A DNA stretch of 64,000 nt from an uncultured Mollicutes bacterium (lineage in GTDB: Bacteria; Bacillota_I; Bacilli_A; RFN20; CAG-826): NCBI GenBank assembly GCA_900540385.1, contig UQFY01000001.1:11344-75343 (forward strand), given 5' to 3'. This document shows, in pieces, positions 1 through 42,316 of the stretch (the first letter of the stretch is position 1; each line of letters starts with the position of its first letter). The notes under the pieces are model-generated. The model searched no databases. It was given only the letters and a program-made list of their open reading frames with translations, and was not told the DNA's origin. A program made the translations under genes and the position numbers.

Positions 1-1624
1 TATCCACAAAAGAATTTGGAAGAGGGGTACCTGTTAACGCAAGTTTGTAAATAGGTGGTTCAGCGCATCCTGTAAGTAAACTAATAAACGCTTTCGAGCG
101 AATCCCGACTATAGACTTTAGCTTGTGTATTTCGTCAAAAATGAGCAAGGTTTTGGAATCTAATGCTCTATTTTGTAATAGTTTTGCTTTTTCAGGAGAA
201 GAGAGCCATTCATAATTAAAAAGATAGACATCGTACTTATTTTTATCTAATGCTCTGACATAGTCTGATTTGTGCTCAGTTATGTCGAAAAAAGCCAATT
301 TTCTTTTTCCTTCGAAGATGGCGTTTCCTTCGTCCTTCCATGCTCTAAAACAATTTAGAGGGCCAAATACGACGATATGATTTGCTTTTTGACCATCCTT
401 AAAATGATGCGACAAATAAGCGAACAGGCCATAAGAAATATATGTTTTTCCAGTTCCAGGGACGGAATAATCTGCTGATGACTGCATAGCGAAATGGAAA
501 AAAGCGTTATCCATTTGCCTGTCTTTCAATTTTCTCGTCATTTCTTCGTCGACGATATTTTTAAACTCATAAAAGGAATTGCTCCACAAATTCATGTTTT
601 TCTTGTCTTTTATCGCAACTCCAAGTTTGATTCGCTTTTCTAAATTAAGATCATTTTCATCTAAATATAATTGGGCTCCGACGCTCAAAATGTAATGGAT
701 ACCAAACGTTTTTAATGTTGGAAGAATGATGTCTCGAAGGACGTGAACGCTTAAATCATTGATGATATATGTGGAGTCTTCTTTTTCTTCCCATTTGCTG
801 CCAAATTTTGTTTTGAGCACCATCGGGCTTTTTAATAGCTTTTCATTTGAATAGTCTTTCAAACGAAAACTTTTATTTTCTTTATCAACATCGATAACAA
901 CGCAGTCTTTATAAACGTAATATTCCTCCTCGGAGCCAAATATCTTGTTTTTAGAATAGGATTTAAGCTTCTCGAATAATTTTCCGCAAGGATACTCGGT
1001 GTGGACGGAACCTGGGGAATATGTGTTGTTCCAGAGCTTTTCAAACATAGATATTCCATCATCAACATCTGGATTTTGTCCGCTGAAATTTGTGAAAACG
1101 TGAAAGTTTTCGGCATTCCTAAGAATTCCGCTGACTGTTTCATTACCTGAACCATCAAAATAAACTATGTTTCCTTTAGAATCTTCAAAAATACCCGCTT
1201 TGATATGACATAGGGCAGATTCGCTGTTCAACATAAAAGCAATTTTCACCTCGGCCAGGCCATGTTCGATTAGATAGCTGAGATTGCACACTTCAAAATC
1301 ATCCATTAAAAAAGAATCGTTTCTATCCATTTCTTTTGCCATGTCATCCATTTTGGTCTTGTATCCTTCTTCAATGTTTTTCATTTCTTCCGGAGATATT
1401 TGATTGGAAAAAATGAAACGGATGTGGCCCTTATTAGCAAAAAATTTATGCAATCCAGAACAAAAACTTTTTAAAATGGCTGAAGAAAAATAAGCAGAAA
1501 TCCTATCATAACGGTTAGAAACGGATAAGCAAGGAAGGTAAAAATCCTTCAATAGATTTGAGCCATCCGCTGAAGGATCGTATCTTCGCTTTAGAGGTAT
1601 TTCTTTTAAACTACTTAGTGGCAT
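1..1624 (-). CDS. PLD-family nuclease domain fused to SF2 (SNF2/DEAD-like) helicase; N-terminal ~540 codons only, gene continues beyond window start
   Basis: Minus-strand frame open from ATG (reverse complement of cat at 1622-1624) to position 1 with no stop; hand translation gives a phospholipase-D signature HIKAGIFED...FDGSGNET (HxK..D..GSxN) and ~250 aa later Walker A VPGTGKTY plus DEIH box (LLIFDEIHKLKS). Absent from ORF track because its stop is outside the window. Confidence 0.6.
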   Translation of the reverse strand, partial: MPLSSLKEIPLKRRYDPSADGSNLLKDFYLPCLSVSNRYDRISAYFSSAILKSFCSGLHKFFANKGHIRFIFSNQISPEEMKNIEEGYKTKMDDMAKEMDRNDSFLMDDFEVCNLSYLIEHGLAEVKIAFMLNSESALCHIKAGIFEDSKGNIVYFDGSGNETVSGILRNAENFHVFTNFSGQNPDVDDGISMFEKLWNNTYSPGSVHTEYPCGKLFEKLKSYSKNKIFGSEEEYYVYKDCVVIDVDKENKSFRLKDYSNEKLLKSPMVLKTKFGSKWEEKEDSTYIINDLSVHVLRDIILPTLKTFGIHYILSVGAQLYLDENDLNLEKRIKLGVAIKDKKNMNLWSNSFYEFKNIVDEEMTRKLKDRQMDNAFFHFAMQSSADYSVPGTGKTYISYGLFAYLSHHFKDGQKANHIVVFGPLNCFRAWKDEGNAIFEGKRKLAFFDITEHKSDYVRALDKNKYDVYLFNYEWLSSPEKAKLLQNRALDSKTLLIFDEIHKLKSIVGIRSKAFISLLTGCAEPPIYKLALTGTPLPNSFVD

Positions 1625-2870
1625 CTTTGATTTCTTGAATTTTGCTCTCCACGGCATCAATTCTGCTTAATAATTCTTCTTTTTCGGAGCTCTTCAAATT
1701 TTGCACAGTTGAAAGTTCTATGGCGTTTAACGCTTTTAAAACGTTTTCCATTGCCTTAGCTGGACCGTTTGCCTCTTTTTCAATTTGCTGTTTGAAAACG
1801 CCATCTCTATAAGCTTTATTCAAAATGCTTTCCAAAGCGCTTTTATCCCTTGCCATTTGTTCACTTTCCTCTGGGGTCGTCGCTTGATAATCGATCTTGG
1901 ATACAACTTTAAGAATTTTGTTGCTTACGTCAGGGGTGTCCACGGTTTCTTTAAAAACATGGTATAGCGCGTCTTCCTTGACTGCGGAATTGAGCAATTC
2001 TCTCGTCTTTCTAGTCCTGTCCCCCGTTTGATCTATGGTCATGGCAGAATAGATATAAAACTTTTTCTCATTCCATTCTTCTTCGGACATTTTCGTTCTC
2101 TTTTTGGCAATGTCTTCGATTGGACCATCTAATTTTTCGTTTTTGAGAATATAAAAGGCCTTTGGCTTTCCTCTCCAATCAAGATAATCCAACATGGTTT
2201 CGACAACCGCTGTGTTCGTTTTAAACTCGTTGGCCTTCATTCCTGAAGCGTGGCAATAGGTTTTTTCATCGCAAAGTTTCGTTAACGGATTCATCACATC
2301 TTTATAGAAACTGACCAAGAAATCGATACGGTTATAGTCTTTCTTTTCATCCACGTCGAACTGAAGATTTAATTCGAGAAGTTTAATTGCAAGCCAAGCC
2401 GCTTTGTCGTTTTCTTGGGGAGCGGGAAGACAAACCGCTTCAAAGAAAGCAAATTTTAAATCGCCGGTTTCTTTGAAAAGTTCGCGCAGCGCGGTGAAAC
2501 GTCTATTGCCATCGATGATGCGCCCGTCCGAAAGAATTACACCTGGCTGTTGTTGTCCCTTTGCGCGGATATCCTCTTTTGTTTTGTTGAATGAAACCAA
2601 ATTGTCGGACGAGGATTCTTTGATAAATCCTGCAATAACATCGTTATATTTCTCTTTATCGCTTTTGAGCAACTCTTTTAAAGGAGAATTGTTATGGTTT
2701 TCGTCGTATTCTTCGATATATGTGGATATACGACCATTCATGTCGTTGTAATAAAGGAGATTTAATGGAATTTTGTAAGAAGCATATTCGCCAGGCATGC
2801 CGTTAATCGTTAGTCGTTTGGGCAAACCTTTCTCGCACTTGTTTAACTGCTCTTCTGTAATGATAACCAT
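1611..2870 (-). CDS. ParB/Srx-like nuclease-domain protein (DUF262/ParB N-terminal fold)
   Basis: 419-aa ORF with motif DGRIIDGNRRFTALREL resembling the ParB-type GxxRxxA/DGQQR box; 3' end overlaps start of downstream PLD-helicase gene by ~14 nt, same strand. Confidence 0.55.
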   Translation of the reverse strand: MVIITEEQLNKCEKGLPKRLTINGMPGEYASYKIPLNLLYYNDMNGRISTYIEEYDENHNNSPLKELLKSDKEKYNDVIAGFIKESSSDNLVSFNKTKEDIRAKGQQQPGVILSDGRIIDGNRRFTALRELFKETGDLKFAFFEAVCLPAPQENDKAAWLAIKLLELNLQFDVDEKKDYNRIDFLVSFYKDVMNPLTKLCDEKTYCHASGMKANEFKTNTAVVETMLDYLDWRGKPKAFYILKNEKLDGPIEDIAKKRTKMSEEEWNEKKFYIYSAMTIDQTGDRTRKTRELLNSAVKEDALYHVFKETVDTPDVSNKILKVVSKIDYQATTPEESEQMARDKSALESILNKAYRDGVFKQQIEKEANGPAKAMENVLKALNAIELSTVQNLKSSEKEELLSRIDAVESKIQEIKDATK

Positions 2871-2880
2871 ACTGTTCCTC

Positions 2881-3564
2881 CTAATTTTGTTGGATAATCT
2901 CTGCTATATATTTTTTGTTAAGCCAAAAAGATTGTTTTGAAAGACCAATGAACCTCGTATTGGCGTCTCTTTTTGGAAGATTGGCTAAATCCATGGAATT
3001 TCTTCCATGCGGCCTTACGTGACATACTTTCGTATCTTTTTCTTTCGGAAAATTCAGGACTATATTCCCTTTAGCATTAATTTGATTTACCACGTTGCCA
3101 GATAAAAGAATCTCTTTCGTCTTTAACCAAACGGGTTTTACTTCACCATCCAACGTCTTTTCTGACATTTTCCATAAGAAAACTTTTTGAAGAAAAACCT
3201 GCCTATTCTCTTTTTCTTCAAAAACAAAAAATAGGAAACGATATGAAAAATGCTTTCTTAGGGTAGAACTCTCCCATTTTTCTTCGATTAAAGAAGAGAA
3301 ATCCATGGTTGGAAAAGACATAGATTCGTTAGGTATGCCTTGACAATCGGTTTGAATCGTCTTTACCCAGATGGATTCATGTTCTAACAAAGCTTTGCCG
3401 TATCCCGCACCTTTGTAAGAATCGATTAGTTTATTTACTAATAAGGCGTTTCTGGACTTGGATTTAGAAACCATTTTCGTAAGGCGGGCCAAGTCATCAA
3501 AGCTCATGCCAATATATCGCTTTAAAAACTCTATTAAAGAGGATGTTTCTTGCTTGAAATCCAT
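2881..3564 (-). CDS. putative type II restriction endonuclease partner of the adjacent m5C methyltransferase
   Basis: 227-aa ORF immediately downstream of (1 nt after) the C5-MTase gene on the same strand; no strong recognisable catalytic motif by eye, call is by context. Confidence 0.35.
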   Translation of the reverse strand: MDFKQETSSLIEFLKRYIGMSFDDLARLTKMVSKSKSRNALLVNKLIDSYKGAGYGKALLEHESIWVKTIQTDCQGIPNESMSFPTMDFSSLIEEKWESSTLRKHFSYRFLFFVFEEKENRQVFLQKVFLWKMSEKTLDGEVKPVWLKTKEILLSGNVVNQINAKGNIVLNFPKEKDTKVCHVRPHGRNSMDLANLPKRDANTRFIGLSKQSFWLNKKYIAEIIQQN

Positions 3565-3565
3565 G

Positions 3566-4834
3566 TCATTTCTCCTCTTTCATAATTGGGATAATCACAT
3601 CGCCAATTCGTTTGACGATTCCGCAAACCAAAGCATTCCCCATCATGAAATAACGCTTTTTATATGGCATGGTATCAGTCCAGTTATCTGGAAATTGATT
3701 GATTCTTTCGCATTCGAGCGCACTTAATATTCTTCTTTTGCCTGTTTTCGGGTCGTCGATGATATGCGTAGAACGATTCACCGTTCCCTCACTTGTAAGC
3801 ATTGTTCTTGCGGGGCGATCTAAATAATCTGGGTTGGCTATCGGTCCCTCAGAATAATAGTATTTATGTCCATTTTTTGCCGTTCTTTCGATTTTTTTAC
3901 CGCCTTTTAAGTAATTAAACTTTTGAATAGCTTTCTCGGATAAGAACAACTCTTTTTTAACATCTCCGCGTTCAATTATTTCCCCCAACGTCGTTGGTTT
4001 TTCAAAGACTGGATTTGTTTTTGCTGTGTAAATGATTCCATCTATCATCAAACCGCTATTTTCAAAAGGGAACGCAAATTCTTTTTGCAATTCTAGGAGG
4101 TCCTTAAAAACCTTTTTGGAAATGTCCGTTTTCTTAATTTTTATTTCTTCTTTTTCAATGGGAAAGGCTTTAGCAAAAACGCCGCTTTCTTTAAAAACGT
4201 TCTCAGGACTTAAATCAATGATATTTCTATAGAATAAAGTGGTATTTCTATAGGCAAAAATGAACGTTCTTCTTCTGCGTTGAGGGAAACCATAATCGGC
4301 TGCATTAATAACTCTATATTCAACCGCATAGCCTTGCTCTGCAAAGCAACGAAGAATGATTCCAAAATCACGACCACGTTGTTTTGAAGGGGCCTTAATT
4401 AAACGGTCAACATTTTCTAACAGCACAAAAGGAGGATGCTTTGCGACAAGAATTTCGTTTATCTGCCACCAAAGTACCCCTTTTTTCCCTTCAATTCCTT
4501 TTTCATGCGTCAAACTTCTTGCGACAGAATAGTCTTGGCAAGGGAAACCGCCTGTTAAAAGAGTGTGCTCAGGTATTTCAAGGTTTTTATCTACCTTACA
4601 AATGTCCTTGTTGGAGTTGTGCTTAGATGGGAACCTAGTATTGTAACAATCAAACGCATATTGAGTTTTCGTTGAGGGCTCCCATTGATTTGCCCAAACG
4701 AATCTTACTCTCTCTCTCTCTCTCACCGCGCCGTTTTCGAAAGTGACTTCATTTAAGCCAACTCGGAAACCGCCAACTCCTGCAAAGAGTTCGATGGCAG
4801 TAGGTGTGATGGATGTATTGGTTCTTTTTGTCAT
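3566..4834 (-). CDS. DNA (cytosine-5)-methyltransferase
   Basis: Classic C5-MTase motifs in order: FAGVGGF (motif I), GFPCQDYSVA (PCQ, motif IV), ENV (motif VI), QRRRR (motif VIII), GNA (motif X). Confidence 0.9.
   Translation of the reverse strand: MTKRTNTSITPTAIELFAGVGGFRVGLNEVTFENGAVRERERVRFVWANQWEPSTKTQYAFDCYNTRFPSKHNSNKDICKVDKNLEIPEHTLLTGGFPCQDYSVARSLTHEKGIEGKKGVLWWQINEILVAKHPPFVLLENVDRLIKAPSKQRGRDFGIILRCFAEQGYAVEYRVINAADYGFPQRRRRTFIFAYRNTTLFYRNIIDLSPENVFKESGVFAKAFPIEKEEIKIKKTDISKKVFKDLLELQKEFAFPFENSGLMIDGIIYTAKTNPVFEKPTTLGEIIERGDVKKELFLSEKAIQKFNYLKGGKKIERTAKNGHKYYYSEGPIANPDYLDRPARTMLTSEGTVNRSTHIIDDPKTGKRRILSALECERINQFPDNWTDTMPYKKRYFMMGNALVCGIVKRIGDVIIPIMKEEK
4708..4724. repeat. (CT)8C dinucleotide simple-sequence repeat inside the 5' coding region of the m5C MTase (encodes VRERERVR)
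   Basis: ctctctctctctctctc read directly at 4708-4724; lies ~33 codons into the MTase ORF, downstream of motif I. Confidence 0.9.
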
Positions 4835-5397
4835 GTTAATTTTTACTAAATCGGCAAGGACACGATCGAAAACGAATAAATGTAACGATCGGCCCTTAAC
4901 GTTTTTACAAAACTAATTATAGAAGATAATTCTCGATCTTTAAGCGATTTTTTAGTCTTTGAAAAACGCTTGGAGCTGAAGAAATGCAAAAAGCGATGTC
5001 GTAAAGCTGATATCAGACCTTTTGCTTTCCGCTCAGCATGAACTGACTTTGCTTTTGACGTACGAATGAAGCAAAAGACCTTAAGCCAAAACAAACTATG
5101 AAGTATTCTTGAATCAAATCATTTTCTTTCTACGTTTTTTACGAATTTAAGTATACGATTCATAAAACAACGTCTTTTTTACTGCCCTATGCGATTGCTG
5201 ACGTTGGAAAGCCCAGTACTGCCTGAAAATGAAAAAACCAGCGTTCTTGCTATGATTTTTTACAATGCGCTTATAAAAATGCTCCCATGTTGTTTTCTAA
5301 AAAAGAGCAGGGGGTGCCGAATGGCACTTCTATGATTTTTCTTGTGTCGCTAAAATTTTCTAAATTCCCCATCCACTTATTGAAAAGGAGCTTAAAA

Positions 5398-6153
5398 ATG
5401 AAACGCAAAACGCTTAAAACGACGTTGTTATCTTTCATGATAATCCCTTTACTCGCTTCCTGCGGGCAGAAGGAACATAACTTTGATAAATCAAAGGAAG
5501 AAAGCACCTATACCATTACCTTTGATAGTAAAGGAGGAAGTGAGGTAGCAAGTATTTCCGCTCCAGCAGGCGCAAAAATTGAAGCGCCAGCTTCCCCAAC
5601 AAAAGAAGGTTTTCTTTTTGCTGGTTGGTATGAAAGCAATGATGGTGGAGCAACTCTAGCAGAAAAACCTTTTGAATTCACCTATATGCCTGCAAGATTT
5701 TTCACTCTCTATGCTAAATGGGGCTTTGATAGCATCAAAGGAAAAACCTTTAAGCACACGTCCTCGGTTTTAACTTGGAGTGGAACGGAAGAAGAAAAGA
5801 AAGCCTTCCTTGGGGAAATGGGGTTAACGGAAGAGCAATATAAGAAGATGAATGAAGCCGCGATTATCAACTTTACCTTTGATAAGGTAGAAGAAAAGGC
5901 TTCGGCTACCTTTGGCGTGGAAATGGAAGGAGAAACGAGTTTAGATAACTGTACCGTTCTTTATAAACTCACTGGAAATATCATCGTTTTCTATGATTCC
6001 GAAGAAGACTTAAAAGTGGGTCTTCCTGCTCATAAATATGGTTTATTTGCGGGTGTAACCTTTTCCCTTTCGCCTGACAGATCCCAAATGATTCTTACAG
6101 GAGTCACAGGAATCTTGAAACTAGAACATATTCTCTCTGTCGTAAAAGAATAG
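5398..6153 (+). CDS. lipoprotein with Listeria-Bacteroides repeat (Flg_new) domain
   Basis: Start chosen at ATG 5398 with SD aaaaggag 8 nt upstream (ORF track begins earlier at 5287); signal peptide + lipobox LLASCG; segment YTITFDSKGGSEV...PTKEGFLFAGWYESNDGG...FTLYAKW matches the Listeria-Bacteroides repeat consensus. Confidence 0.8.
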   Translation: MKRKTLKTTLLSFMIIPLLASCGQKEHNFDKSKEESTYTITFDSKGGSEVASISAPAGAKIEAPASPTKEGFLFAGWYESNDGGATLAEKPFEFTYMPARFFTLYAKWGFDSIKGKTFKHTSSVLTWSGTEEEKKAFLGEMGLTEEQYKKMNEAAIINFTFDKVEEKASATFGVEMEGETSLDNCTVLYKLTGNIIVFYDSEEDLKVGLPAHKYGLFAGVTFSLSPDRSQMILTGVTGILKLEHILSVVKE

Positions 6154-6215
6154 AAATATTCGATATAAACAGAGAAGAATGATGATAAATTCATCCCCAT
6201 TCCATAAGGAGGTGA

Positions 6216-6250
6216 TTACGCTACTGGGGAATAATAAATAAGTAGCGTAA
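6216..6250 (+). promoter_or_regulatory. perfect 10-bp inverted repeat hairpin (TTACGCTACT...AGTAGCGTAA) directly upstream of the RBS of the next lipoprotein gene
   Basis: Read directly; sits between two same-strand lipoprotein genes, no T-run after it, so terminator versus attenuator role unclear. Confidence 0.3.
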
Positions 6251-6257
6251 AAAGAGA

Positions 6258-8261
6258 ATGAAGAAGAAAAAACTATCCGCATTGGCTGTAACATTCTTCT
6301 TTCTTGCGACAGGCTCATTGGCTAGCTGTGGCAAGAAGAAGGAATCCAGCAGCCTTCCATCCGTTTTAGAAAGTGTTCATCAACACGATTTTTCTACTGC
6401 CTGGGCACATGATGAGACAAAACATTGGCACGCTTGCAAGGATACATCTTGCAATGAAAAGAAAGATTTAGCAGACCACAGTTTCGTTTGGAGCGAGAAA
6501 ACACCAGCATCTCTCCATACCAACAAAGTAGAAAAAGGAGTCTGCTCCGTTTGTAATTATGCAACCGAACGAACAGTAGAAAATACGGCAACCCATGAAT
6601 GGAGTGACGAGTGGAAGAAAGATGCAACTGGACATTGGCATGAAACAAGTTGCACTGACCATGATCCAATGAAGAAAGACTTTAGCGAACATCAAGGGGA
6701 ATGGACGGTTAAAGTTGAGGCGGCTTATCAACAAAATAGAGTAGACGAAAGAACCTGTACCGTTTGCGCCTTCCATGAAGAAAAGACCATTGAAGGAACT
6801 GCTCTTGCCTTTAAACCAAGAAGCATTACCGTCTCTCAAAGTGAATTCGTTTATAATGCAAAGCCTTATGCCTTAGATAGCTACATTACAACTGAAGATA
6901 AGGAAGGCATGCAAGTTGAATATAGAAAGAAAGGCACCGAAGCCTATTCAACAAGTGCACCATCTAACGTAGGCATCTATGAATATAAAATCACTCTTCC
7001 AAAAGCTGGAGAGTGGGATGCTGCCGAAAAAACGGGTGAAATGAAAATCGCCCAATACGAAGTGACATTGACAAAGAAAGAATTTTCTAGAGATTTAGGC
7101 TCTCAAGTTGTTGATGGACAAATCCAATTAGAAGAAATCGAAGTCAGTATCGACACTTCGACAAAAGAGAAAATAATGCTTACGCTTGATGCGTCTTTTG
7201 ATGTGGCGGGTGTTCAAAGCGTTCCTGCTACAGAATTAAAACTCGCCAATCCGAATTACGCATTAAATGTCGGGGAAATCACCGAAGTAACTTTGAAAAA
7301 CTACGATACTGCTGACTTCTATTGTGGTATCCAGGATATCTACACCTTCCCTAGTAAAGAGGGCGTCGCTATTCAAACGCAAATTGCTCGTGGAACACTC
7401 AAAGTCGGAGATTCTGTTTATATCCACGAAATCAAAAAGTCTGTGACTGTAACCGCTATGGAAGCAGAAAGAAAAAAATTAGAAAAAGCAACGGTCGGAG
7501 AAACCATCATGTTCCTCGTCACTGGCATTACCAAAACGGAAATTGCAAGAGGCTACACGGTAAGTAAAAAGGACACGCTATTGGAATACGATCGTGTTGT
7601 TGGGAATATTTATGTTTACACCAAAGATGAAGGCGGCAGACATACTCCATTAATGGATAGCACCAAGGAAGCATACCTTCCTACCATCAGGTTCGTAGAC
7701 ACTGGTTCGGAGAGAGAAGCAAGAATGTTCTTCCCGAAAGATACGACGATGATAATGCCAGGGGAAACAGTTGAGGGCGTTAGATTCTACTTCCCATACT
7801 CTATGCCTGCTTTCGTTGGACGTAGTTTTGTTCTGATAGAATCAGGAAGAACAATCGCCAAAGTCGAGATTACGGATGTTCATAAACACGATAGCAACTA
7901 CTATAGAGATGGTACTTGTAGAGACTGTTACTACGCTTCAGGGACTTCTTTGAATTTAACAGATAACAAAGTGGAAGTGGAGCGTAAATTCCTTAAAGAT
8001 GAAAATAGAATCTTCCTCCTCAAACTCACCGGCAATGGGAAGGGCGAAAGGACATATCGCTTCATACTTTCGGATACCACAAACTTCACAATGGTACTTA
8101 AAGCCACGCTTGGTAACACGATATACACCTTGACTAACAAAGGCGATTTCACCGTTGAAAATGATGGATATTACCATATCGCTATCAATATCACGGCTAA
8201 GAATCGTGGAACTTGTAAATTGACAGTATCTGAAGTATTCACCATTAAACCAATTGGTTAA
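6258..8261 (+). CDS. surface lipoprotein with N-terminal His/Trp/Cys-rich repeats and a C-terminal region homologous to EF-Tu domains 2 and 3
   Basis: Signal peptide + lipobox LASCG; aa ~360-540 (nt ~7340-7885) align convincingly to EF-Tu beta-barrel domains: RGTLKVGDSVYI, TVTAMEAERKKLEKATVGETIMFLVTGITKTEIARGYTVSK, IYVYTKDEGGRHTPLMDS...MIMPGETVEGVRFYF...GRSFVLIESGRTIAKVEI versus EF-Tu RGIIKVGEEVEI ... VYILSKDEGGRHTPFF...MVMPGDN...GLRFAIREGGRTVGAGVV. Confidence 0.85.
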   Translation: MKKKKLSALAVTFFFLATGSLASCGKKKESSSLPSVLESVHQHDFSTAWAHDETKHWHACKDTSCNEKKDLADHSFVWSEKTPASLHTNKVEKGVCSVCNYATERTVENTATHEWSDEWKKDATGHWHETSCTDHDPMKKDFSEHQGEWTVKVEAAYQQNRVDERTCTVCAFHEEKTIEGTALAFKPRSITVSQSEFVYNAKPYALDSYITTEDKEGMQVEYRKKGTEAYSTSAPSNVGIYEYKITLPKAGEWDAAEKTGEMKIAQYEVTLTKKEFSRDLGSQVVDGQIQLEEIEVSIDTSTKEKIMLTLDASFDVAGVQSVPATELKLANPNYALNVGEITEVTLKNYDTADFYCGIQDIYTFPSKEGVAIQTQIARGTLKVGDSVYIHEIKKSVTVTAMEAERKKLEKATVGETIMFLVTGITKTEIARGYTVSKKDTLLEYDRVVGNIYVYTKDEGGRHTPLMDSTKEAYLPTIRFVDTGSEREARMFFPKDTTMIMPGETVEGVRFYFPYSMPAFVGRSFVLIESGRTIAKVEITDVHKHDSNYYRDGTCRDCYYASGTSLNLTDNKVEVERKFLKDENRIFLLKLTGNGKGERTYRFILSDTTNFTMVLKATLGNTIYTLTNKGDFTVENDGYYHIAINITAKNRGTCKLTVSEVFTIKPIG

Positions 8262-8274: not shown

Positions 8275-8303
8275 AGAGTGGGGCGTTTGCTCCACTTTTT
8301 TCT
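8275..8303 (+). terminator. rho-independent terminator after lipoprotein gene
   Basis: GC-rich imperfect hairpin agagtggggcg-ttt-gctccact followed by tttttt. Confidence 0.5.
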
Positions 8304-8559
8304 ATGCCCATAAATTGAATCTCAACATCTTGTTTTTGTAATGCTTATCTTGCCATATGATGCCAAAAACCAACGTTTCTCCCTTTCAAAACATTCTTCT
8401 ACATAATAATGCTCAAGGTAGACATAACAAATATTTTCAAATTAGCAAAAACAGCGAATATAACTGCTAAAAATACACGATAAAATAAAGAATGAGTTTG
8501 CAATTAGTTGAAACTTACCTTTTAAGAACTATAATTTTTTAAAGAAAAGAGGATGCTTG

Positions 8560-8729: not shown

Positions 8730-9224
8730 ATGAATAAGGCATTTTGCATAGTTCCATTTATTTTTTTCCTGTTTTCCTGCCAGAATCAGAAAAGTGACCT
8801 TGAGATTTTGAAAGAAAATTCCTGCCTTCCTTTGGGAGGCGAACTTGAATCTATGAAAAACAGTTTGGAATTCGAGGAGAGAAGACAAGACGAATTCAAC
8901 GTTTATTCTATTAAGGCTGATAAACTGTACGAAGGAAGGAAAACCTATATCTATTTTAATGATGAAGGAGAATGCATCGGCCTTCTCACTAGGAATCCTT
9001 TCTATGGTTTTAACGTTTTTGGACTAGGGATTCACGATTCTTTTTATAGCCAATGGTATCCTCAAAAGGATAAAAAAGATGGTTGGCACGTTCTTGCTAA
9101 TGAATACAAGTATTACGAATGGCCTTTGGAGAATGCGAAAAACGAAGATGGAGAGGTTTGGTATGGAGCTACCAACCAAGATGAAACAATCCAATTAAAT
9201 TTCTCGATTGATTTCTCGGGCTGA
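8730..9224 (+). CDS. small lipoprotein, unknown function
   Basis: MNKAFCIVPFIFFLFSCQ signal peptide with lipobox. Confidence 0.65.
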   Translation: MNKAFCIVPFIFFLFSCQNQKSDLEILKENSCLPLGGELESMKNSLEFEERRQDEFNVYSIKADKLYEGRKTYIYFNDEGECIGLLTRNPFYGFNVFGLGIHDSFYSQWYPQKDKKDGWHVLANEYKYYEWPLENAKNEDGEVWYGATNQDETIQLNFSIDFSG

Positions 9225-15708: not shown

Positions 15709-17184
15709 ATGAAAATTAACGAGCTATTTCCAGAAATAGATAATGAAAATTATGGTATAGAATTGAAAGTTCGCTTATTAACTGGTCTCGATAAGCAAGG
15801 CAACGATAACGAATTGAAATGGTTGAAGGAAATTGTTGCTTTCGCTAACACTCAAGGAGGCACTTTATTTTTGGGCGTTAACGATAAAACCCATGAATTG
15901 GAACCATTAGACCATTCTGGGATTGATGAAGCAGCAAGACTTCTCTATCAAAAAGTGGAAGAAAGAATAGAACCTGATATTTCCTTAAGAGTCAAAGAAA
16001 TAAGCTTAGGTAAGACGTATAAAGATCAATATATTCTTCGTATCGATGTTGAAAAATCAGAAAAAACCCCTGTCTATGTTCATGTAAATGGGATACCTGT
16101 GTGTTATATTCGTCAATTCGGTAGAGTAAAAACGGCCTCCCCTGAACAAATCGCTCAGCTTGTTGTGAAATCCACAAGGATTGCATACGATTTGGTTTTG
16201 ACTGATGAAATCTATAAGGAAAAAGACTACCAGAGGTTAATTGCTAAATATGAAGAAACGAATCCTGGAAAAAAACTAGATGATAAGACTTTGATTTCTT
16301 TCGGGTTTATGAATAATGAAAAACGTCTCTTTAAAGGTTCTTTATTATTCAAAGATAATTGCGAAGATTTAATAACTCTTGCTAAATGCTCTGTCTATCC
16401 TGGTTTTGATAAAGGCGGGAATGTTGTTTCCGCCTCTCAATCATATCAGGGATGTCTTATATCGGTCATTTACGAAGTCGTTGACTTTGTTAAAAATCAT
16501 TCCACTATTGGCTATAAAAAAACAAATGATTCGAGAATTGATCTCTCTTCTTATCCAGAAAGAGCGTTGTTTGAAGGAGTGGTTAACGCATTCGCTCATC
16601 GAAATTATTTTATTTTTGGTTCAGAGATACAGTTTGATATTTTTAAAGACCGCCTAGAAATCACTTCGCCAGGATCATTACTTGGTGGAAAGAACCTAGA
16701 ACAAGAAAAACAAATTAGCCAAATTATGCCAAAAAGAAGAAATGAGCTTATTTGCAAAATACTGGAGTCTTTGCACATGATGGAAGCCAAAGGGACGGGC
16801 TTTGATAAAATCGTTGAAGAATATCGTCAAGCTAAAGAATCTCAAAAACCATTTGTTAGTTGCAACGATGATTATTTTACTTTGACATTACCTGATTTGA
16901 CCTTCCAAAAAGGGGTACTCGGTGAAGGCAATCCTTATCCTGAAATCCATCTTTTAAGGGAAATTGCCTCTTCCTACGATGAGAGAATTCTTTCGTGTTG
17001 TTACTTAAAGGAAAGAACGATCACTGAAATTGCCTCTTTTTTACAAATATCTTCCTCTTCTCATCTTAGAAACGATATTCTCGAAAAACTAGTTGAAGAA
17101 GGATATCTTTTTAAAACACAAAAAGGAAAAGCGTTCTTTTATCTAACCAATAGGGCAAAGCTCGAAAAAGAAAATGCCATCTAG
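15709..17184 (+). CDS. AlbA_2 (Schlafen-like) domain ATP-binding protein with C-terminal HATPase-like/wHTH region; putative transcriptional regulator
   Basis: N-terminal LKWLKEIVAFANTQGGTLFLGVND matches the AlbA_2 divergent AAA box; SD aaaaggagg upstream. Confidence 0.65.
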   Translation: MKINELFPEIDNENYGIELKVRLLTGLDKQGNDNELKWLKEIVAFANTQGGTLFLGVNDKTHELEPLDHSGIDEAARLLYQKVEERIEPDISLRVKEISLGKTYKDQYILRIDVEKSEKTPVYVHVNGIPVCYIRQFGRVKTASPEQIAQLVVKSTRIAYDLVLTDEIYKEKDYQRLIAKYEETNPGKKLDDKTLISFGFMNNEKRLFKGSLLFKDNCEDLITLAKCSVYPGFDKGGNVVSASQSYQGCLISVIYEVVDFVKNHSTIGYKKTNDSRIDLSSYPERALFEGVVNAFAHRNYFIFGSEIQFDIFKDRLEITSPGSLLGGKNLEQEKQISQIMPKRRNELICKILESLHMMEAKGTGFDKIVEEYRQAKESQKPFVSCNDDYFTLTLPDLTFQKGVLGEGNPYPEIHLLREIASSYDERILSCCYLKERTITEIASFLQISSSSHLRNDILEKLVEEGYLFKTQKGKAFFYLTNRAKLEKENAI

Positions 17185-21273: not shown

Positions 21274-22626
21274 TTAATCGTTTATCGGCACAAAAGTTTT
21301 CATCATTCTTTTTAACAAAAATGTGCAGAAATATGGAAAAGTGTATATATGTTCGTTGTAACCGATATTGTTTGCTGATAATTTGAAACCGTATGCAATG
21401 TCCGGATATTCGTTAGAAGAGATCAATGTTCTTAAAGACTTTGAATGGCCGCCTTTTGCTTTTACTTCGATAGGTATCAGATTATTTGCCGTACGAATGA
21501 AGAAGTCTTCTTCTAATGTTCCATTCTCTTTTTTGTAGTAGTAGAGCTTGTAACCGGATTTAACTAACGCTTCAGCGACGATGTTTTCATAAAGCGCACC
21601 TTTATAAACACCAAGATTTTTATTTGCTCGCAAATCTTCTTGCGATTCTTCATCTAAGAGCGAAACAAGCAAACCCGTATCAGAGAAATACAACTTATAT
21701 TTGTCAATATCGCAATTCCCTGAGAGGGGTAATTCCGCCACATTCAAACAATAACACGCGTTGATGACTCCTGCGTCTACAAGCCATTCGGTGCAACCAC
21801 GATAATCACGGAATTTCGCATTTTTTTCGACTTTCGAAATCTGGAATTTTTTGTTTTCCTTCGCTAATTGAGACGGAACACTATTGAAAACGTTTAATAT
21901 TCTTGTTTGATCAATCCCCTCTGCATATTTCCTTATGTCTTCTTTATAGTCGGCTATAAGCTGATGTTGGGTATCGAGAGAGCCTTCAAAAGTCCCTTTC
22001 TCTATATATTCTTTTATAACTGCAGGCATTCCGCCAAGAATCACGTAGTCTAGGAAAATCCCATGAAATAGGGACATTTCAAGTTCACTAAAAGGAGTAA
22101 GTGTTTTCATGTGCGAAAGAATATCTTCTATTGTTGCTTCGCTATAACCCTTCGCCCATAGAAATTCTTCGAAATCCATTGAATACATCTCGTAGTCAGT
22201 CTTATATCCAACGCTGTTACTTTCAATCTTTTTGTAATTTATTCCAAGCATAGAGCCGCTGCAAATAACGTCAAAACGCCCATCTTCCTTAAAGAACTTC
22301 AAAGAAGTTGCAATATCGGGAAAATCGCTTATTTCATCAAAAAATATTAATGTTTTCCCAGGTATAAAGGATTTAGAAGGGTCCAGCAATGAAATATTTT
22401 TTATGATTGCTGAAGCGCTATACCCATCTAAGGTTATTTTTTTATACTTTTCGTCTTTTACGAAATTGATTTCAATGACACTTTGATAACCTGCCACTTT
22501 GGCAAAATGCCTAATGGATTCGGTTTTACCTACTTGTCGGCATCCCTTGACTATTAAAGGCTTTTTGTCTTTGTCTTCCTTCCATTTTAAAAGAAAGCCA
22601 TCTATCTTACGTTTTAAATAGGCCAT
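21274..22626 (-). CDS. AAA+ ATPase with DUF4143 C-terminal domain (COG1373 family), paralog 1
   Basis: P-loop LIVKGCRQVGKTE and family-typical C-terminal IEVK box. Confidence 0.85.
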   Translation of the reverse strand: MAYLKRKIDGFLLKWKEDKDKKPLIVKGCRQVGKTESIRHFAKVAGYQSVIEINFVKDEKYKKITLDGYSASAIIKNISLLDPSKSFIPGKTLIFFDEISDFPDIATSLKFFKEDGRFDVICSGSMLGINYKKIESNSVGYKTDYEMYSMDFEEFLWAKGYSEATIEDILSHMKTLTPFSELEMSLFHGIFLDYVILGGMPAVIKEYIEKGTFEGSLDTQHQLIADYKEDIRKYAEGIDQTRILNVFNSVPSQLAKENKKFQISKVEKNAKFRDYRGCTEWLVDAGVINACYCLNVAELPLSGNCDIDKYKLYFSDTGLLVSLLDEESQEDLRANKNLGVYKGALYENIVAEALVKSGYKLYYYKKENGTLEEDFFIRTANNLIPIEVKAKGGHSKSLRTLISSNEYPDIAYGFKLSANNIGYNEHIYTFPYFCTFLLKRMMKTFVPIND

Positions 22627-27462: not shown

Positions 27463-28713
27463 CTAGGATTTTATGGAATCCGGATCGATAAGGAATTCCT
27501 TCAAACCTAGGAAGAGAGTTCCCTTATCGTCTTTCCATTTCTTGATGTTATTTCTTACGACGATGATCTTTTTGAAACTGTCGTTGATGTGTAGCAATGA
27601 TTTTTCTTCCTGCTCTCTTTTTCCTTTTTCGTCGATAGTAAGTGCAGATTGTATGTAATATCTTTCGTATCCAAGATTACAAACAAAATCGACTTCCAGG
27701 TTCTTTCTTACGTAGTTGTTGTTCTCATTCTTTTCGCCGATTGTTACAACGCCGACGTCTACTTTATATCCACGGATTATTAATTCGTTGAAGATAATGT
27801 TTTCCATGATGTGATTTTCTTCTTGCTGCCTAAATCCCAGCCTTGCGTTTCTTAGCCCGATATCAGTGAAATAATATTTTAAAGGAGTGTCGATATATTT
27901 CTTTCCTTTGACGTCGTACCGATACGCTTTCTGTAGTAAAAAAGAGTCGGCACAACAATCCAAATACTGCTTTATCGTGTTGGGCGCCACATCGATGTTT
28001 TTAATGGATTTGAATGAATTTGATAGCTTGTTTGGATTCGTCAATGACCCGACGCTCGAAGAGACGATGTTCAAAACGTCTTCTAGAACTTCGGTGTTCC
28101 TGATGTTGTTACGATTGACGATGTCTTTAATATAGGTCTCAGTGAATAGATTTTCTAAATAATTGATCTTTTGTTCGTCACTCTTGCAGGTTAAAAGGTA
28201 AGGCATCCCCCCAAACATTGAATATTCATTCCACGCGTCATCAAAATCCATTTTGCAATAATCGAAATATTCTTTGAAAGACAGTGGTGATAGATAGATT
28301 TGATCACCTCTTCCTCTAAATTCCGTGATAATGTCTGAAGAAAGGAATTTTGCGTTGCTTCCTGTCACATACACATCGACATTTTTAATGTGGAGGAAAG
28401 AATTCAGGACGCTTTCAAAGTCGTGAACAAACTGTACCTCGTCTAAAAGAATATAGTATTTACCATTGTCGATAATTTGATTACGGACATATTCATATAA
28501 ATAATCCGGATTTTGGAATTTGATGTTTGATCTGTCGTCTAACTGCAAGGCGATTATATGGGATTTATCGACGCCGTTTTCTAGTAGATAGTTATAGAAT
28601 ATTTCGAATAAAAGGTATGATTTACCGCATCTTCTGATGCCAGTGATTACTTTTATCATCCCGTTCCCCATTCGGTCGATGAGCTTTTTTAGATAATCAT
28701 TTCTTTTAATCAT
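27463..28713 (-). CDS. AAA+ ATPase with DUF4143 domain (COG1373 family), paralog 2
   Basis: P-loop VITGIRRCGKSYLLFE; C-terminal VDFV box. Confidence 0.85.
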   Translation of the reverse strand: MIKRNDYLKKLIDRMGNGMIKVITGIRRCGKSYLLFEIFYNYLLENGVDKSHIIALQLDDRSNIKFQNPDYLYEYVRNQIIDNGKYYILLDEVQFVHDFESVLNSFLHIKNVDVYVTGSNAKFLSSDIITEFRGRGDQIYLSPLSFKEYFDYCKMDFDDAWNEYSMFGGMPYLLTCKSDEQKINYLENLFTETYIKDIVNRNNIRNTEVLEDVLNIVSSSVGSLTNPNKLSNSFKSIKNIDVAPNTIKQYLDCCADSFLLQKAYRYDVKGKKYIDTPLKYYFTDIGLRNARLGFRQQEENHIMENIIFNELIIRGYKVDVGVVTIGEKNENNNYVRKNLEVDFVCNLGYERYYIQSALTIDEKGKREQEEKSLLHINDSFKKIIVVRNNIKKWKDDKGTLFLGLKEFLIDPDSIKS

Positions 28714-33018: not shown

Positions 33019-35781
33019 ATGATACATGAATTTGATTTTCAATTTTGGAAAAACAACGTTGTCGATATTTGTGACTGGATAGATGCAACAATTAAAAGAT
33101 ATCCAGCTGAGGAACGAGAAACTGTTTCCACAGATGCGATAAAACGTTTGCGAGACTTGATTAATGCCGTTTGTGTTTGCTGCCTTTTAAAAAACAAACC
33201 CCAAACTTTTAAAAACCAATATGACTATATTGTTCAAGGCCTAAAATATGTCGAAGCCAATAAAAGCTATAAATTCATATATGACTTTTACAAACGTTCA
33301 AAAATAAGCCTGTCCCATTATTCTCCTTTTGGGGAAGAAGCAGAGAGATTAATGCTAAGATATTGCGAAAATCTACTTCATTTAAAAAACTATTTGAAAA
33401 ACGAACTTGGCTTGGACGTTCTTCATGAATTGGATCGTTTCCCGATGGACTTAGATGAAACGTTCGAAACATACTATTTGGAAATCATAAAAGCCATGCA
33501 ATCGATAGCCTTTGACGGTCGTTCTTCGAGAGGAAGAGATTTATATTATGTTCAGAAAAAGAAAACCATTTATTGCCAGAACGTTCTTTTTTATGAATAC
33601 ACTTTATCGAGCGCGAATGACGGCCTAAGCAAATTTGATCGCTTTACCGCCTTTTCAAAAATTGATGTTTTTGATAATTACGCCATCAAAGCTTCATTTT
33701 TGAAGAAACCTGTTTCACTTTTTGGCGTAGAAGTTCACCTCAATTTTTTGACGGATTATCAGGTTGCCATTCGACCTTGTGAATTTAGCCGTTTACTGCA
33801 AATTATCGGAATTACTTTAAAAAACACTTTTTCTCCAGGAAAAGAATACCATCGGTTGTTATCTTATATTCAGGAACACAAAGAGCCTTTAGATGAGCTT
33901 TTAATTGCAGATAAGTATGATTTCAAACGCCTTTTAGATACCATTCATATAACAAAAGAATCATATTTGTATCTCTTTTTAACTAAATCTCGAAGAATTC
34001 TTTTGAGTGATCAAATTGGAAAAAATGTTTATAAATATCTTCTTCGCACTATCAACAATAGAATTTTGAAAGAACAAATGCCTTTGTTGGGTTATTCCTC
34101 AATTTTAAGTAATGAAATCAGGGTCAGAAAAGCGGATTCTCTTTTCGATGGTATGCCATACGTTTTTTCTTTGGTCAAACATAATCCTAGATTTGAAACT
34201 CTGTTAGATTGTTTCCCTTTGGCGGAACATGAAGATGAAATGATTAAAAGATGGGTTAATAAAATGAGTTTGGATAAATCCGTACTTTACAATCAGATTC
34301 CTGGTGAAACCACTTTTGAGAAAATAGAAGAGAGTGTTCGCAGGTTTAATGCTCTGTGTAACGAAAAAGGTTTTAAAGACGAATATAAACTGCAGTTTTT
34401 CAAAAATTATATCTACGAAAACGGCACCGAACAAACTTGTCATAAACTGATAAAAAAGCTCTTGGATTTGGCGAAATGTTCAAATGTTCCCGATTTTACC
34501 TCCTACATTCAATCAAGGATTGAAGAGATAGGCTTTAAAATAGATGACCCGCAGAAAAGATCGGCTTTAAAAACAATGTATAAAAATGGTTCTCTTTTCG
34601 CCATATATGGCTGTGCGGGTTCCGGGAAAAGCACCTTCGCAAGCTATCTTCTTAAAATACTTGGTAAAGAAACAAAAGTACTTTGCTTGACCAACACAAA
34701 TCCAGCTTTAATGAATCTAAGAAAGAAATTGGGTGAAGAAGGAACTCAATATTTCACGACATATAGGTTTCTACGTTTGAAAGAAGAAAATGTCCCGGAT
34801 TGCGATTTTTTAATTATTGACGAATGTAGTAACATTTCCAATACAGATATGCTTGCCGTTCTTGAGAAAGCCCATTTTAAACTGCTTCTTCTTTTGGGAG
34901 ACGTGCATCAAATTGAATCAATACAATTCGGCAATTGGTATTCTTTGCTGTTCCATTTTCTTTCGGACACAGAAAAAATAGAACTTTGTTCAGCCTATCG
35001 AGCTCAAAAAAATGAACATTTATTGGGCTTATGGAAAGTGGTACGAGAAAACGATGATTCGATATTTGAACTATTTGAAAAGTGTAAAGTTTCTAAAAAA
35101 CTTGGAGATGAGTTATTCGAAACTTCAAGCTCGGATGAAGTCATTCTTTGCCTTAATTACGATGGCTTATATGGCTTGAATAACATTAACAATTATCTTC
35201 AAACAAGAAACCCAAATCCTGCGGTTTATTGGAAACAGTATACGTTTAAAAAGGGAGATCCTATTTTATTTATTGAAAACTCTCGCTTTGGTTCCCTGCT
35301 TTATAATAATTTAAAAGGGAAAATCGATGAAGTGGAAAAGGACGAAAAAGGCAATCTTCATTTTAAGATTGTGGTTAATAGATCCGTTAATCCTTTTGAC
35401 CGATTAGAAGGATTTGAGTTAGTAAAGAACTTTGGCGACGGACGGAGCCTTATTGCTTTTTCCGTTAGAAATCCTAAAGATATAGACTATGAAAACGATA
35501 TGAAGGAGGATTGCAAAATTCCTTTTCAGATTGCTTATGCTGTTTCTATACACAAAGCCCAAGGGCTTGAATACGATTCCGTTAAGATCGTGATAACAAA
35601 TGAAGTAGAGGAACTAATTACTCACAATATTTTTTACACAGCTATTACTAGGGCAAAAAATGATTTAACGATTTACTGGACGCCTGAAACCGAAAGAAAA
35701 ATCATTAAATCTTTGCAAATTAGAAACAACGCCAGTGATTTTTCCATTCTTCAAAATAAGTTCTCAGACTTGCGCAGATAG
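33019..35781 (+). CDS. SF1 (RecD/UvrD_C_2-type) helicase with ~500-aa N-terminal domain of unknown function
   Basis: Walker A IYGCAGSGKST, Walker B LIIDECSN, AYRAQ and SIHKAQGLEYDSV (UvrD_C_2 signature). Confidence 0.75.
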   Translation: MIHEFDFQFWKNNVVDICDWIDATIKRYPAEERETVSTDAIKRLRDLINAVCVCCLLKNKPQTFKNQYDYIVQGLKYVEANKSYKFIYDFYKRSKISLSHYSPFGEEAERLMLRYCENLLHLKNYLKNELGLDVLHELDRFPMDLDETFETYYLEIIKAMQSIAFDGRSSRGRDLYYVQKKKTIYCQNVLFYEYTLSSANDGLSKFDRFTAFSKIDVFDNYAIKASFLKKPVSLFGVEVHLNFLTDYQVAIRPCEFSRLLQIIGITLKNTFSPGKEYHRLLSYIQEHKEPLDELLIADKYDFKRLLDTIHITKESYLYLFLTKSRRILLSDQIGKNVYKYLLRTINNRILKEQMPLLGYSSILSNEIRVRKADSLFDGMPYVFSLVKHNPRFETLLDCFPLAEHEDEMIKRWVNKMSLDKSVLYNQIPGETTFEKIEESVRRFNALCNEKGFKDEYKLQFFKNYIYENGTEQTCHKLIKKLLDLAKCSNVPDFTSYIQSRIEEIGFKIDDPQKRSALKTMYKNGSLFAIYGCAGSGKSTFASYLLKILGKETKVLCLTNTNPALMNLRKKLGEEGTQYFTTYRFLRLKEENVPDCDFLIIDECSNISNTDMLAVLEKAHFKLLLLLGDVHQIESIQFGNWYSLLFHFLSDTEKIELCSAYRAQKNEHLLGLWKVVRENDDSIFELFEKCKVSKKLGDELFETSSSDEVILCLNYDGLYGLNNINNYLQTRNPNPAVYWKQYTFKKGDPILFIENSRFGSLLYNNLKGKIDEVEKDEKGNLHFKIVVNRSVNPFDRLEGFELVKNFGDGRSLIAFSVRNPKDIDYENDMKEDCKIPFQIAYAVSIHKAQGLEYDSVKIVITNEVEELITHNIFYTAITRAKNDLTIYWTPETERKIIKSLQIRNNASDFSILQNKFSDLRR

Positions 35782-35815
35782 TTAAAAGCGGCATTACGTT
35801 TTAGAGGAAAAATAG

Positions 35816-39505: not shown

Positions 39506-39658
39506 CGCATCGGTTTAGCAAAAATGATGTCATTGTTTTAAATATCATCTCCCCTTTTTCAACTTAAGAATAGAAATATAAAAATCGGTTTCTTCGATGC
39601 CCCATCATAATCCTGCTATAATAATGTGAGCAATAAACATATAAGGAGCATAATCATC

Positions 39659-41566: not shown

Positions 41567-42295
41567 GGATCTGAAACTGATTATAAAGAAGCATTCAGAG
41601 CTTTAGAATCTCCATGGATATAAGTATGGCTGAAGTTTTAGTGCACAGTTATTTTAACTACATTCTAGAACCCTAGAAATTAGTGACTAAACCCGCAACA
41701 TCCTGCCGGCAAGATTTGAACCCCACCAGCAATTAAGGTGGTTTTGTTTCAATTGGGGATGCTATTTAACGACGTATACCCTGGAAGGAGTCGAAAACGG
41801 CAATACGACCAACGGGGATGTATCCGTATCCTGGGAAGACGATGATGTTTCGAAGATTGTCTATTCCCTTGATGGAGGAGAGGGAATTCTATTTGAAAAC
41901 TGCGCTCTCTTCGACAAAGAGGTAAAGTATGTTGTAAAGGTGGTCGATAAGCTAGGAAATGAGACCTTAAAACCTTCACTATCGATAAGACTGTCGATCA
42001 CTCTGTGGCTACTTCGGACGGATATCGATTTTTGTTGTCTACTCGTCGATCTCTTTTCGTAGCACCTTATTCCATGCGGCGAGACCCTCCACGGATTTAT
42101 AGTTCTTATCAAACTGGGAGGTGGTTAGCTTCATTTCGGAGCTGAGCGCCTTTAAACACTGGTTGATGTCTACCAGTAGTGTTTTTTTGAACTCTTTTTC
42201 GCCTTCAAGACCGATCTTCAGTCCGAAACTATCTGCTATATACCGTCATCTCCTTGTAGATGGCATGAAAAAAACACCTTTTCACCGAGAAATTG

Positions 42296-42316
42296 GGACG
42301 AAACCGTCCGAAGTTT
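42296..42316. repeat. hairpin motif GGACGAAACCGTCCGAA downstream of COG1373 paralog 3
   Basis: Read directly; second copy at 43687-43708. Confidence 0.8.

Follow-up and report, generated by a model that had tools for sequence, protein, structure and literature searches.

How do domains 2 and 3 of elongation factor Tu (EF-Tu), a factor of cytoplasmic translation, come to stand in a gene for a surface lipoprotein, and what could they do there? The question is raised by a gene in a stretch of 64,000 nt (from here on the window) from an uncultured Mollicutes bacterium of the human gut (assembly GCA_900540385.1, contig UQFY01000001.1, positions 11,344-75,343). An earlier reading of this DNA (the sequence-only reading) had proposed a dedicated gene for a secreted lipoprotein that carries EF-Tu domains 2 and 3 and lacks the GTPase domain (G domain), and this proposal holds: the encoded protein of 667 amino acids has a lipobox, is homologous to EF-Tu domains 2 and 3 (D2-D3) over residues 353-541 (nt 7314-7880) and to no other part of EF-Tu, and has neither G domain nor P-loop. 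The range given earlier, nt 7340-7885, corresponds to residues 362-543 and agrees well with the homologous stretch. The gene and the parts that matter first are:

6258..8261, plus strand, lipoprotein coding sequence, 667 amino acids, stop codon counted in (from the list of open reading frames)
6258..6329, plus strand, signal peptide and lipobox L-A-S-C, with Cys24 as predicted lipidated residue (from the sequence pattern)
7308..7577, plus strand, EF-Tu domain 2-like beta barrel, residues 351-440 (Pfam GTP_EFTU_D2, NCBIfam, PDB sequence and Foldseek matches)
7578..7880, plus strand, EF-Tu domain 3-like beta barrel, residues 441-541 (NCBIfam, PDB sequence and Foldseek alignments; Pfam D3 below cutoff)

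The two Pfam models by which the homology was to be checked gave E = 1.9e-8 and 35.1 bits for GTP_EFTU_D2, which exceeds the cutoff of 30.3 bits, and E = 1.8e-4 and 22.2 bits for GTP_EFTU_D3, which is under the cutoff of 27. The NCBIfam models of EF-Tu match with E = 6e-26 to 7e-25 in an alignment confined to model positions ~210-395, and the bacterial EF-Tu model scores 91 bits versus 36 for EF-1alpha, 31 for SelB and 19 for CysN; by these scores the module is clearly allied to bacterial EF-Tu and not to EF-1alpha, SelB or CysN. The equivalog model TIGR00485 reaches 87.5 bits versus a cutoff of 522. With phmmer against PDB sequences E = 4.9e-21 is obtained to residues 210-390 of Escherichia coli EF-Tu, the top match being 5i4q, a D2-D3 fragment crystallised with the CdiA toxin, and BLASTP against E. 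coli D2-D3 finds 32% identity over 184 amino acids (E = 8e-25). The two stretches by which the resemblance had been noticed are both present, KDEGGRHTP at residues 456-464 (nt 7623-7649) and MIMPGETV at residues 498-505 (nt 7749-7772). The match is far beyond chance.

An AlphaFold2 model of the whole protein, built from 15 relatives, has a block-mean predicted local distance difference test (pLDDT) of ~71-94 for residues ~150-660; within D2-D3 the values are mostly 83-93, the lowest being 71 at residues 461-470. Superposition on EF-Tu, which had likewise been named as a check, succeeded: with Foldseek both domains superpose jointly on dozens of EF-Tu structures with a root-mean-square deviation (rmsd) of 2.0-2.2 Å over 191-195 columns (E = 5e-15). 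Because the pair is superposed over both domains, the two barrels and their mutual arrangement are, in the predicted model, those of EF-Tu. Domain 3 is packed on domain 2 as in EF-Tu, the phmmer as well as the Foldseek alignments spanning both.

In the 667-residue protein neither a Pfam match to GTP_EFTU (the G domain) nor a Walker A motif/P-loop (GxxxxGK[ST]) is found, and the ~170 residues preceding D2 are all-beta in the AlphaFold2 model. An alignment was made of D2-D3 from 28 family representatives (for the family see below), of E. coli EF-Tu and of an ancestral EF-Tu obtained by reconstruction, and functional positions were scored in it. These comprised the aminoacyl/CCA pocket and T-stem contacts, namely E215, D216, F218, T228, E259, F261, R262, N273, R318, H319, Q329, T338, E378 and G379 of E. 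coli, and also positions of the domain 1-3 interface. Among the counts, in E. coli numbering, are:

E215, kept in 2/28 family representatives
F261, kept in 2/28
A375, kept in 2/28
T338, kept in 3/28
N273, kept in 6/28
Q329, kept in 6/28
T228, kept in 9/28
H319, kept in 10/28
R262, kept in 13/28
R318, kept in 14/28

Among the tRNA contacts D216 (20/28) and G379 (19/28) are higher, most others being kept in 2/28 to 15/28, and the protein of the window carries Q359, E404, T416, T476 and E487 at pocket or T-stem sites. The best-kept positions are glycines, prolines and turns (G317 23/28, P352 22/28, P321 21/28, G316 20/28). The KDEGGRHTP loop is intact in the query, but in roughly one subfamily out of four it is missing or can no longer be recognised (e.g. 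in proteins P0128, P0133, P0138, P0139 and P0141). Since pocket residues and loop are not conserved, the G domain is missing and the predicted location is extracellular, a role of D2-D3 in translation, or a retained binding of tRNA or EF-Ts, appears very unlikely. The low counts for E215, F261, N273, Q329 and T338 also disfavour the decoy for tRNA or EF-Ts that the sequence-only reading had offered. The protein is not an EF-Tu, because G domain, tRNA residues and cytoplasmic location all fail.

The location is predicted from the N-terminus, MKKKKLSALAVTFFFLATGSLASC, in which a basic n-region (MKKKK) is followed by a hydrophobic core and the lipobox L-A-S-C with Cys24. It satisfies the lipoprotein pattern [LVI][ASTVI][GAS]C and is kept in the orthologues by pattern match; Cys24 would thus be lipidated. 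A lipobox is present in 23 of the 28 family representatives, and the five without it include two that are N-terminally truncated, one with the variant LTVC and one with an N-terminal membrane helix (P0134, which is within the 23 lipobox bearers, is likewise N-terminally truncated). The host's lgt and lspA are positioned outside the window.

That the barrels are grafted behind a signal peptide stands as far as the signal peptide is concerned; they do not follow it directly, D2-D3 starting ~330 residues in, and the protein is made up of six parts, namely lipid anchor, two Cys/His modules, MBG-like domain plus beta domain, D2-D3, zinc knuckle and C-terminal jelly-roll. The parts not yet listed are:

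6372..6797, plus strand, two Cys/His-rich modules, residues 39-110 and 111-180, HxH..W..D..HWHxC...CxxC, predicted zinc-binding stalk
6798..7052, plus strand, MBG-like beta domain, residues 181-265, pLDDT ~79-93, all-beta
7053..7307, plus strand, all-beta domain before D2, residues 266-350, pLDDT ~90, all strands
7881..7937, plus strand, HxH...CxxC knuckle, H542, H544, C554 and C557, predicted zinc site
7938..8258, plus strand, C-terminal beta-sandwich/jelly-roll, residues 561-667, predicted membrane-distal end, pLDDT 85 in an AlphaFold2 sub-model

The second Cys/His module repeats the first (38% identity, E = 1e-10), and the two match residues 903-970 and 1071-1132 of the IgA protease from Thomasclavelia ramosa (PDB 9qa6; phmmer E = 9.8e-9), which probably are its domains CTD2 and CTD4. 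These were described as having an uncharacterised fold with zinc fully coordinated by Cys and His, and were proposed to be "periscope" domains that project the active part from the cell (PMC12415215). In the modules of the window protein H41, H43, H56, W57, H74, C96, C99, H113, H126-H128, C132, C167 and C170 do not vary among 15 relatives, and the AlphaFold2 confidence is low (pLDDT <50 at residues 1-71 and 114-142); by the conserved ligand pattern the modules may well bind zinc. The Cys/His module is very widespread, yet it is without a Pfam model. A single protein can have as many as 18 copies, the surface proteins in question reach 5612 amino acids, and elsewhere the module is joined to FGE-sulfatase, cohesin, dockerin, LRR_5, Flg_new and GDSL domains; such combinations come from metagenome-assembled genomes (MAGs) of Clostridia, Treponema and Anaeroplasma (proteins P0142-P0267 and P0408-P0521).

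For the MBG-like domain Pfam MBG_3 (best E = 2.4e-5) and YDG are each matched in two of 27 relatives at the equivalent position, and neither is matched in the query. The all-beta domain that follows (residues 266-350) has no Pfam match above noise and is the least conserved part of the stalk among the subfamilies (13-64% identity).

Behind D2-D3, the four residues of the knuckle are invariant in 15 family members as well as in a 10-sequence alignment of the C-terminus, and zinc is a probable ligand here too. The jelly-roll at the tip varies more than any other part of the protein. Its Foldseek matches are PliG, the claudin-binding domain of Clostridium perfringens enterotoxin, a collagen-binding/PPC domain of ColG and a PPC domain from Bacillus anthracis (E = 1.6e-4 to 3e-3, template modelling (TM) score 0.45-0.57), with 5-16% identity and an rmsd of 3-6 Å to PliG, the enterotoxin domain and ColG; a Pfam PPC match is found neither in the query nor in the Pfam scan of the family. 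The likeness of the modelled tip to these binding modules is one of fold class only, and binding residues are not transferable.

How widespread is this architecture, and is the gene a functional one? The protein has 343 homologues, of which about 30 clusters are more than 90% identical, about 70 lie near 64% and others at 58, 42 and 37-39%. HMMER, run without filters on 1.84 billion representatives (50% identity), yielded about 27 clusters that include D2-D3; among 27 family members Pfam recognises D2 in 22 and D3 in 18 (best D3 E = 4e-18). Orthologue records are labelled Bacilli bacterium (HGM MAGs), Bacillales bacterium and uncultured Mollicutes bacterium UMGS1247, one orthologue is from a stool-fibre cohort sample, and the only annotation of the NCBI relatives is "hypothetical protein [Bacilli bacterium]". 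The MAG GCA_963630675.1 contains two paralogues, one 89% identical (locus L001, CAVGNR010000010.1) and one 38% identical (locus L007, CAVGNR010000001.1) to the window protein; its title 'Escherichia coli' is a clear mislabel, judged by gene content and by the other (Bacilli/Mollicutes) records.

Compared with the 89%-identical orthologue L001, the ratio of nonsynonymous to synonymous substitution rates (dN/dS) is 0.14 overall and, with few sites per domain, 0.16 for D2 and 0.15 for D3. The gene is real and under purifying selection. In the group near 64% identity the ratio is 0.05-0.26 for the stalk and mostly 0.3-1.0 for D2, D3 and tip, with one D3 value of 0.14. Mean entropy, taken from two independent species-level groups of 31 and 73 sequences, climbs from 0.07-0.10 in the stalk via 0.15-0.20 in D2/D3 to 0.22-0.35 in knuckle and tip, a gradient that suggests an exposed, interacting end. 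D2-D3 is present once per protein; it is the constant element among subfamilies with differing C-terminal parts, and in protein P0164 it forms the very C-terminus.

As for the origin of the module, comparison of the query with 119 EF-Tu fragments of widely differing lineages gave identities of 26-34% (median 29%), no lineage being closer than the others, and by tblastn the window contains no tuf gene. P0164, which has diverged least among the relatives, shows 34-46% identity to the 119 EF-Tus, again with no preferred lineage, and scores 139 bits with the reconstructed ancestral EF-Tu. Since the family shares derived features absent from EF-Tu, namely (K/S)AT.GD for G(R/Q)AG(E/D)N and PGET for PGDN, a single capture of D2-D3 with subsequent divergence is suggested by the alignments. 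A recent copy of tuf is excluded by the identity of 26-34% and by the equal distance from the 119 EF-Tus.

What, then, could D2-D3 do? We give about an even chance to the reading that it is part of the ligand-binding, adhesin-like head of a surface protein. The lipid anchor at Cys24 would fix the protein in the membrane; the stalk, composed of the two Cys/His zinc modules, the MBG-like domain and the further beta domain, would project the remainder off the cell; and the head would consist of the single, rigid EF-Tu D2-D3 barrel pair together with the HxH/CxxC knuckle and the jelly-roll. The barrel pair would have been captured long ago from a bacterial EF-Tu, retaining fold and structural turns and losing the residues that contact aminoacyl-tRNA and its T-stem. 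Without G domain and outside the cell it would have no action in translation, and the head would instead contact a surface molecule of the host, of a food particle or of a neighbouring cell. Because the lipid anchor is N-terminal, D2-D3, knuckle and jelly-roll should be the membrane-distal end, and D2-D3 is assigned to the head rather than to the stalk because it is single-copy, is constant while the C-terminal parts change and lies where variability rises distally. That the Cys/His stalk carries other heads in other proteins also counts for a stalk-and-head design. Stalk-and-head geometry, surface exposure and any binding activity are what we infer from these patterns.

There are repeated reports of EF-Tu on the surface of bacteria, "moonlighting" as an adhesin; its route to the surface and the meaning of the binding are disputed. 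For surface EF-Tu of Mycoplasma pneumoniae, binding of fibronectin was mapped to the last part of domain I, the first part of domain II and the greater part of domain III (PMC5593925). Several points weigh against an adhesin-like head. The precedent for adhesion by EF-Tu concerns proteins that are ~25-29% identical to the module; the tip resembles binding modules only weakly (E ~1e-4, TM ~0.5); the higher variability of D2-D3 could stem from relaxed constraint; and in four contexts compared (the window, L007, L009 and L010/L011) a conserved operon partner is found only in close groups, this being the lipoprotein gene with Flg_new repeat directly upstream. A narrower claim, which we regard as unlikely, is that a dedicated adhesin of gut Firmicutes binds through D2-D3 itself; evolution would then have taken that half of EF-Tu which reportedly adheres to host molecules in moonlighting and made it part of an exported lipoprotein family mounted on a stalk.

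The main rival to the adhesin-like head is that D2-D3 is a rigid spacer, i.e. an extra segment of the stalk, and that all binding of ligand falls to the jelly-roll at the C-terminus or to other domains appended there; we judge this possible, if doubtful. It would fit that in P0138, P0144, P0130 and P0158 a further 200-430 residues come after an internal D2-D3, that the residues conserved in the family are mostly Gly, Pro, turn or core positions, that the tip varies more than D2-D3, and that beta-rich folds are often reused for projection (PMC12415215). Such domains are, however, usually found in tandem repeats, whereas D2-D3 is always single; it is retained while the flanking C-terminal domains are swapped, ends the protein in P0164 and varies more than the stalk domains do.

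A third explanation, very improbable in our estimate, is that D2-D3 acts outside the cell as a decoy or sink for thiopeptides of the GE2270A type that target EF-Tu, for EF-Tu-dependent toxins, for anti-EF-Tu antibodies or for a phage protein. Thiopeptides of the GE2270A class bind domain 2 of EF-Tu, the best PDB sequence match is the fragment crystallised with CdiA toxin, and the gene is located in a defence-rich variable region (see below). At the positions that line the D2 pocket or confer resistance, however, the query has K for R223 (R kept in 5/28), A for G257 (G kept in 5/28) and M for G275 (G kept in 6/28), F261 and N273 being altered as well, and for this lack of conservation a thiopeptide decoy is rated low. 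At 26-34% identity to real EF-Tu the mimicry of a specific surface is unlikely, and the toxins of contact-dependent inhibition (CDI) and of type VI secretion systems (T6SS) encounter EF-Tu in the cytoplasm, not extracellularly. The phage-receptor mimic considered by the sequence-only reading found no support, since a fold search of BFVD revealed no phage protein with the module, only translation GTPases of giant viruses and meaningless alignments with an rmsd >20 Å.

Even less probable is that D2-D3 retains binding of RNA, tRNA or EF-Ts, for instance as a means of scavenging nucleic acid outside the cell for nutrition. The query does keep R461/H462 (E. coli R318/H319), E528 (E378), D360 (D216), R405 (R262) and E402 (E259), and small genomes are found in the host group. 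Against this, the same residues are not conserved throughout the family (mostly 2/28 to 15/28), GGRHTP is missing or unrecognisable in the quarter of subfamilies mentioned above, and neither in the window nor in the contexts of the relatives is a nuclease or transporter partner encoded nearby. Binding of aminoacyl-tRNA, moreover, requires the GTP-bound G domain, and EF-Ts binds mainly to domain 1.

An artefact (pseudogene, mis-assembled chimera of tuf and a surface-protein gene, or gene-calling error), for which nothing specific speaks beyond the metagenome-like window and its shift in composition at the 3' end, is refuted for practical purposes by the recurrence of the full-length architecture in hundreds of independent assemblies (at least 27 clusters at 50% identity), by intact reading frames with a dN/dS of 0.14, by a conserved leader and a terminator of the gene's own, and by a D2-D3 that is ~30% identical to any EF-Tu and hence no fresh chimera.

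How does the protein compare with known systems? With bacterial EF-Tu (TIGR00485) it shares D2 and D3 in the same order and in the same rigid arrangement (rmsd ~2.0 Å over ~191 columns) and the motifs xIxDxF, RG..KxGD, KDEGGRHTP, MPGE/D and ExGxT; unlike EF-Tu it has 667 residues without G domain or P-loop, a signal peptide with lipobox, only 26-34% identity and tRNA residues that are not conserved, and its module is set between unrelated extracellular domains. As with the moonlighting EF-Tu, barrel domains would be displayed on a low-GC Gram-positive/Mollicutes-type bacterium. There, however, the whole cytoplasmic factor is found at the surface, without signal peptide and processed, whereas here a separate gene with a Sec/lipoprotein signal encodes only D2-D3 in a very divergent form. 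The tail of the T. ramosa IgA protease has homologous Cys/His modules, and both proteins are modular surface proteins of gut Firmicutes; in the protease the modules are C-terminal to an M64 protease head, whereas in the window protein, which has no protease domain, they are N-terminal, next to the lipid anchor, and would carry an EF-Tu-like head. The modelled tip has a weak likeness, in beta-sandwich fold class, to the collagen-binding domain of ColG, the C-terminal domain of C. perfringens enterotoxin and PliG, which are protein-binding modules. CysN/NodQ, SelB, EF-1alpha and the translation GTPases of giant viruses share the D2 (and D3) barrels; unlike the window protein they keep the GTPase domain and act in the cytoplasm.

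In the literature searched, no description was found of EF-Tu D2-D3 alone behind a secretion signal or as an extracellular module, which agrees with the earlier opinion that the protein is unusual. By sequence pattern it would be a lipoprotein, and by its stalk modules it would group with the "periscope"-type surface proteins of gut Firmicutes. New here is a surface-lipoprotein head module, as we read it, of unprecedented origin; modular surface lipoproteins were already known. The family, which recurs in human-gut metagenome assemblies, is predicted to export just the two EF-Tu barrels by the normal lipoprotein route and thus offers a testable system for the debate on moonlighting. If D2-D3 does bind host or microbial ligands, a core translation fold would have been turned into an extracellular binding module; if it is itself a dedicated adhesin, this would lend independent evolutionary support to the debated adhesion by the EF-Tu barrels, define a minimal adhesive unit and show for the first time that domains of a translation factor have become fixed outside the cell as modules. 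Even as a mere spacer it would be a reuse of the domains not recorded before and a new module for the "periscope" toolkit of poorly known gut Bacilli. For annotation it is a warning that matches to GTP_EFTU_D2/D3 do not always indicate a translation factor.

The gene has a leader and a terminator of its own:

6206..6213, plus strand, Shine-Dalgarno sequence AAGGAGGT, strong/perfect, ~44 nt 5' of the start codon (read in the sequence)
6216..6250, plus strand, leader hairpin of 10 bp with a 15-nt loop, between Shine-Dalgarno sequence and ATG, conserved
8275..8301, plus strand, intrinsic terminator, GC-rich hairpin with a run of T behind it, 14 nt past the stop codon, minimum free energy (MFE) -20.4 kcal/mol, z = -4.3

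The conserved leader region, 6198-6260, was examined also upstream of the gene in L001, L002-L005, L007, L010 and L011, and the Shine-Dalgarno sequence is unchanged across seven orthologous and paralogous leaders. The hairpin folds with an MFE of -15.8 kcal/mol (z = -5.4); in the alignment 91% of cells are paired, compared with 21-56% in slid controls, and three pairs show compensatory changes, which span the orthologues and one 38% paralogue. The closed hairpin, as modelled, would bring the spacing between Shine-Dalgarno sequence and ATG to ~9-11 nt. Alternatively, the leader may serve a conserved mini-ORF (open reading frame) of five codons in the loop, CTG/TTG GGG AAT AAT AAA TAA (MGNNK; MGNKI in L007), which is correctly spaced after the Shine-Dalgarno sequence. 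The gene in L009 is without this leader and has an ordinary Shine-Dalgarno sequence instead. In L003 (10001-10003) an ATA is present where the main start ATG is expected, with leader and remaining ORF intact. The terminator, which is absent from the listing of the consensus terminator scan, was spotted by eye and is supported by folding; a search of the window against Rfam gave zero matches.

Upstream of the leader lies the one conserved neighbour:

5398..6153, plus strand, lipoprotein with Flg_new (Listeria-Bacteroides) repeat, probable start MKRKTL..LLASC, Pfam Flg_new E = 3.7e-15, within ORF 5287-6153

It is directly upstream also in the 64%-identity loci L010/L011 (8975-9910), and no terminator was seen between it and the gene for the 667-residue protein. 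Downstream, a promoter-like TTGAAA-16-TATAAT at 8508-8535 precedes a possible short ORF at 8562, and an ORF of 164 amino acids (8730-9224) has a lipobox-like N-terminus (FLFSC) and a weak match to DUF7338.

The wider surroundings are a variable region rich in defence genes (1611-4834, 15709-17184, 21274-22626, 27463-28713, 33019-37018 and 39626-56564). Encoded are a C5 DNA methylase with a MutH-like nuclease, a Schlafen AlbA_2 protein, three paralogous AAA_14/DUF4143 ATPases, a superfamily 1 (SF1) helicase adjoining AbiH, GmrSD and a KAP NTPase, and in a minus-strand block an SMC-like protein, a T5orf172/ResIII protein, Eco57I-type and MmeI-type methylases and a Schlafen-group-3 helicase. From ~57500 to 64000 the GC content is 0.45-0.53 versus 0.34-0.41 over most of the window. 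Its genes include one for a MobL relaxase at 57925-59229 and one for a TraG/VirD4-type coupling protein at 59226-61445, so that this part has the look either of a mobilisable or conjugative element that has integrated or of an assembly join.

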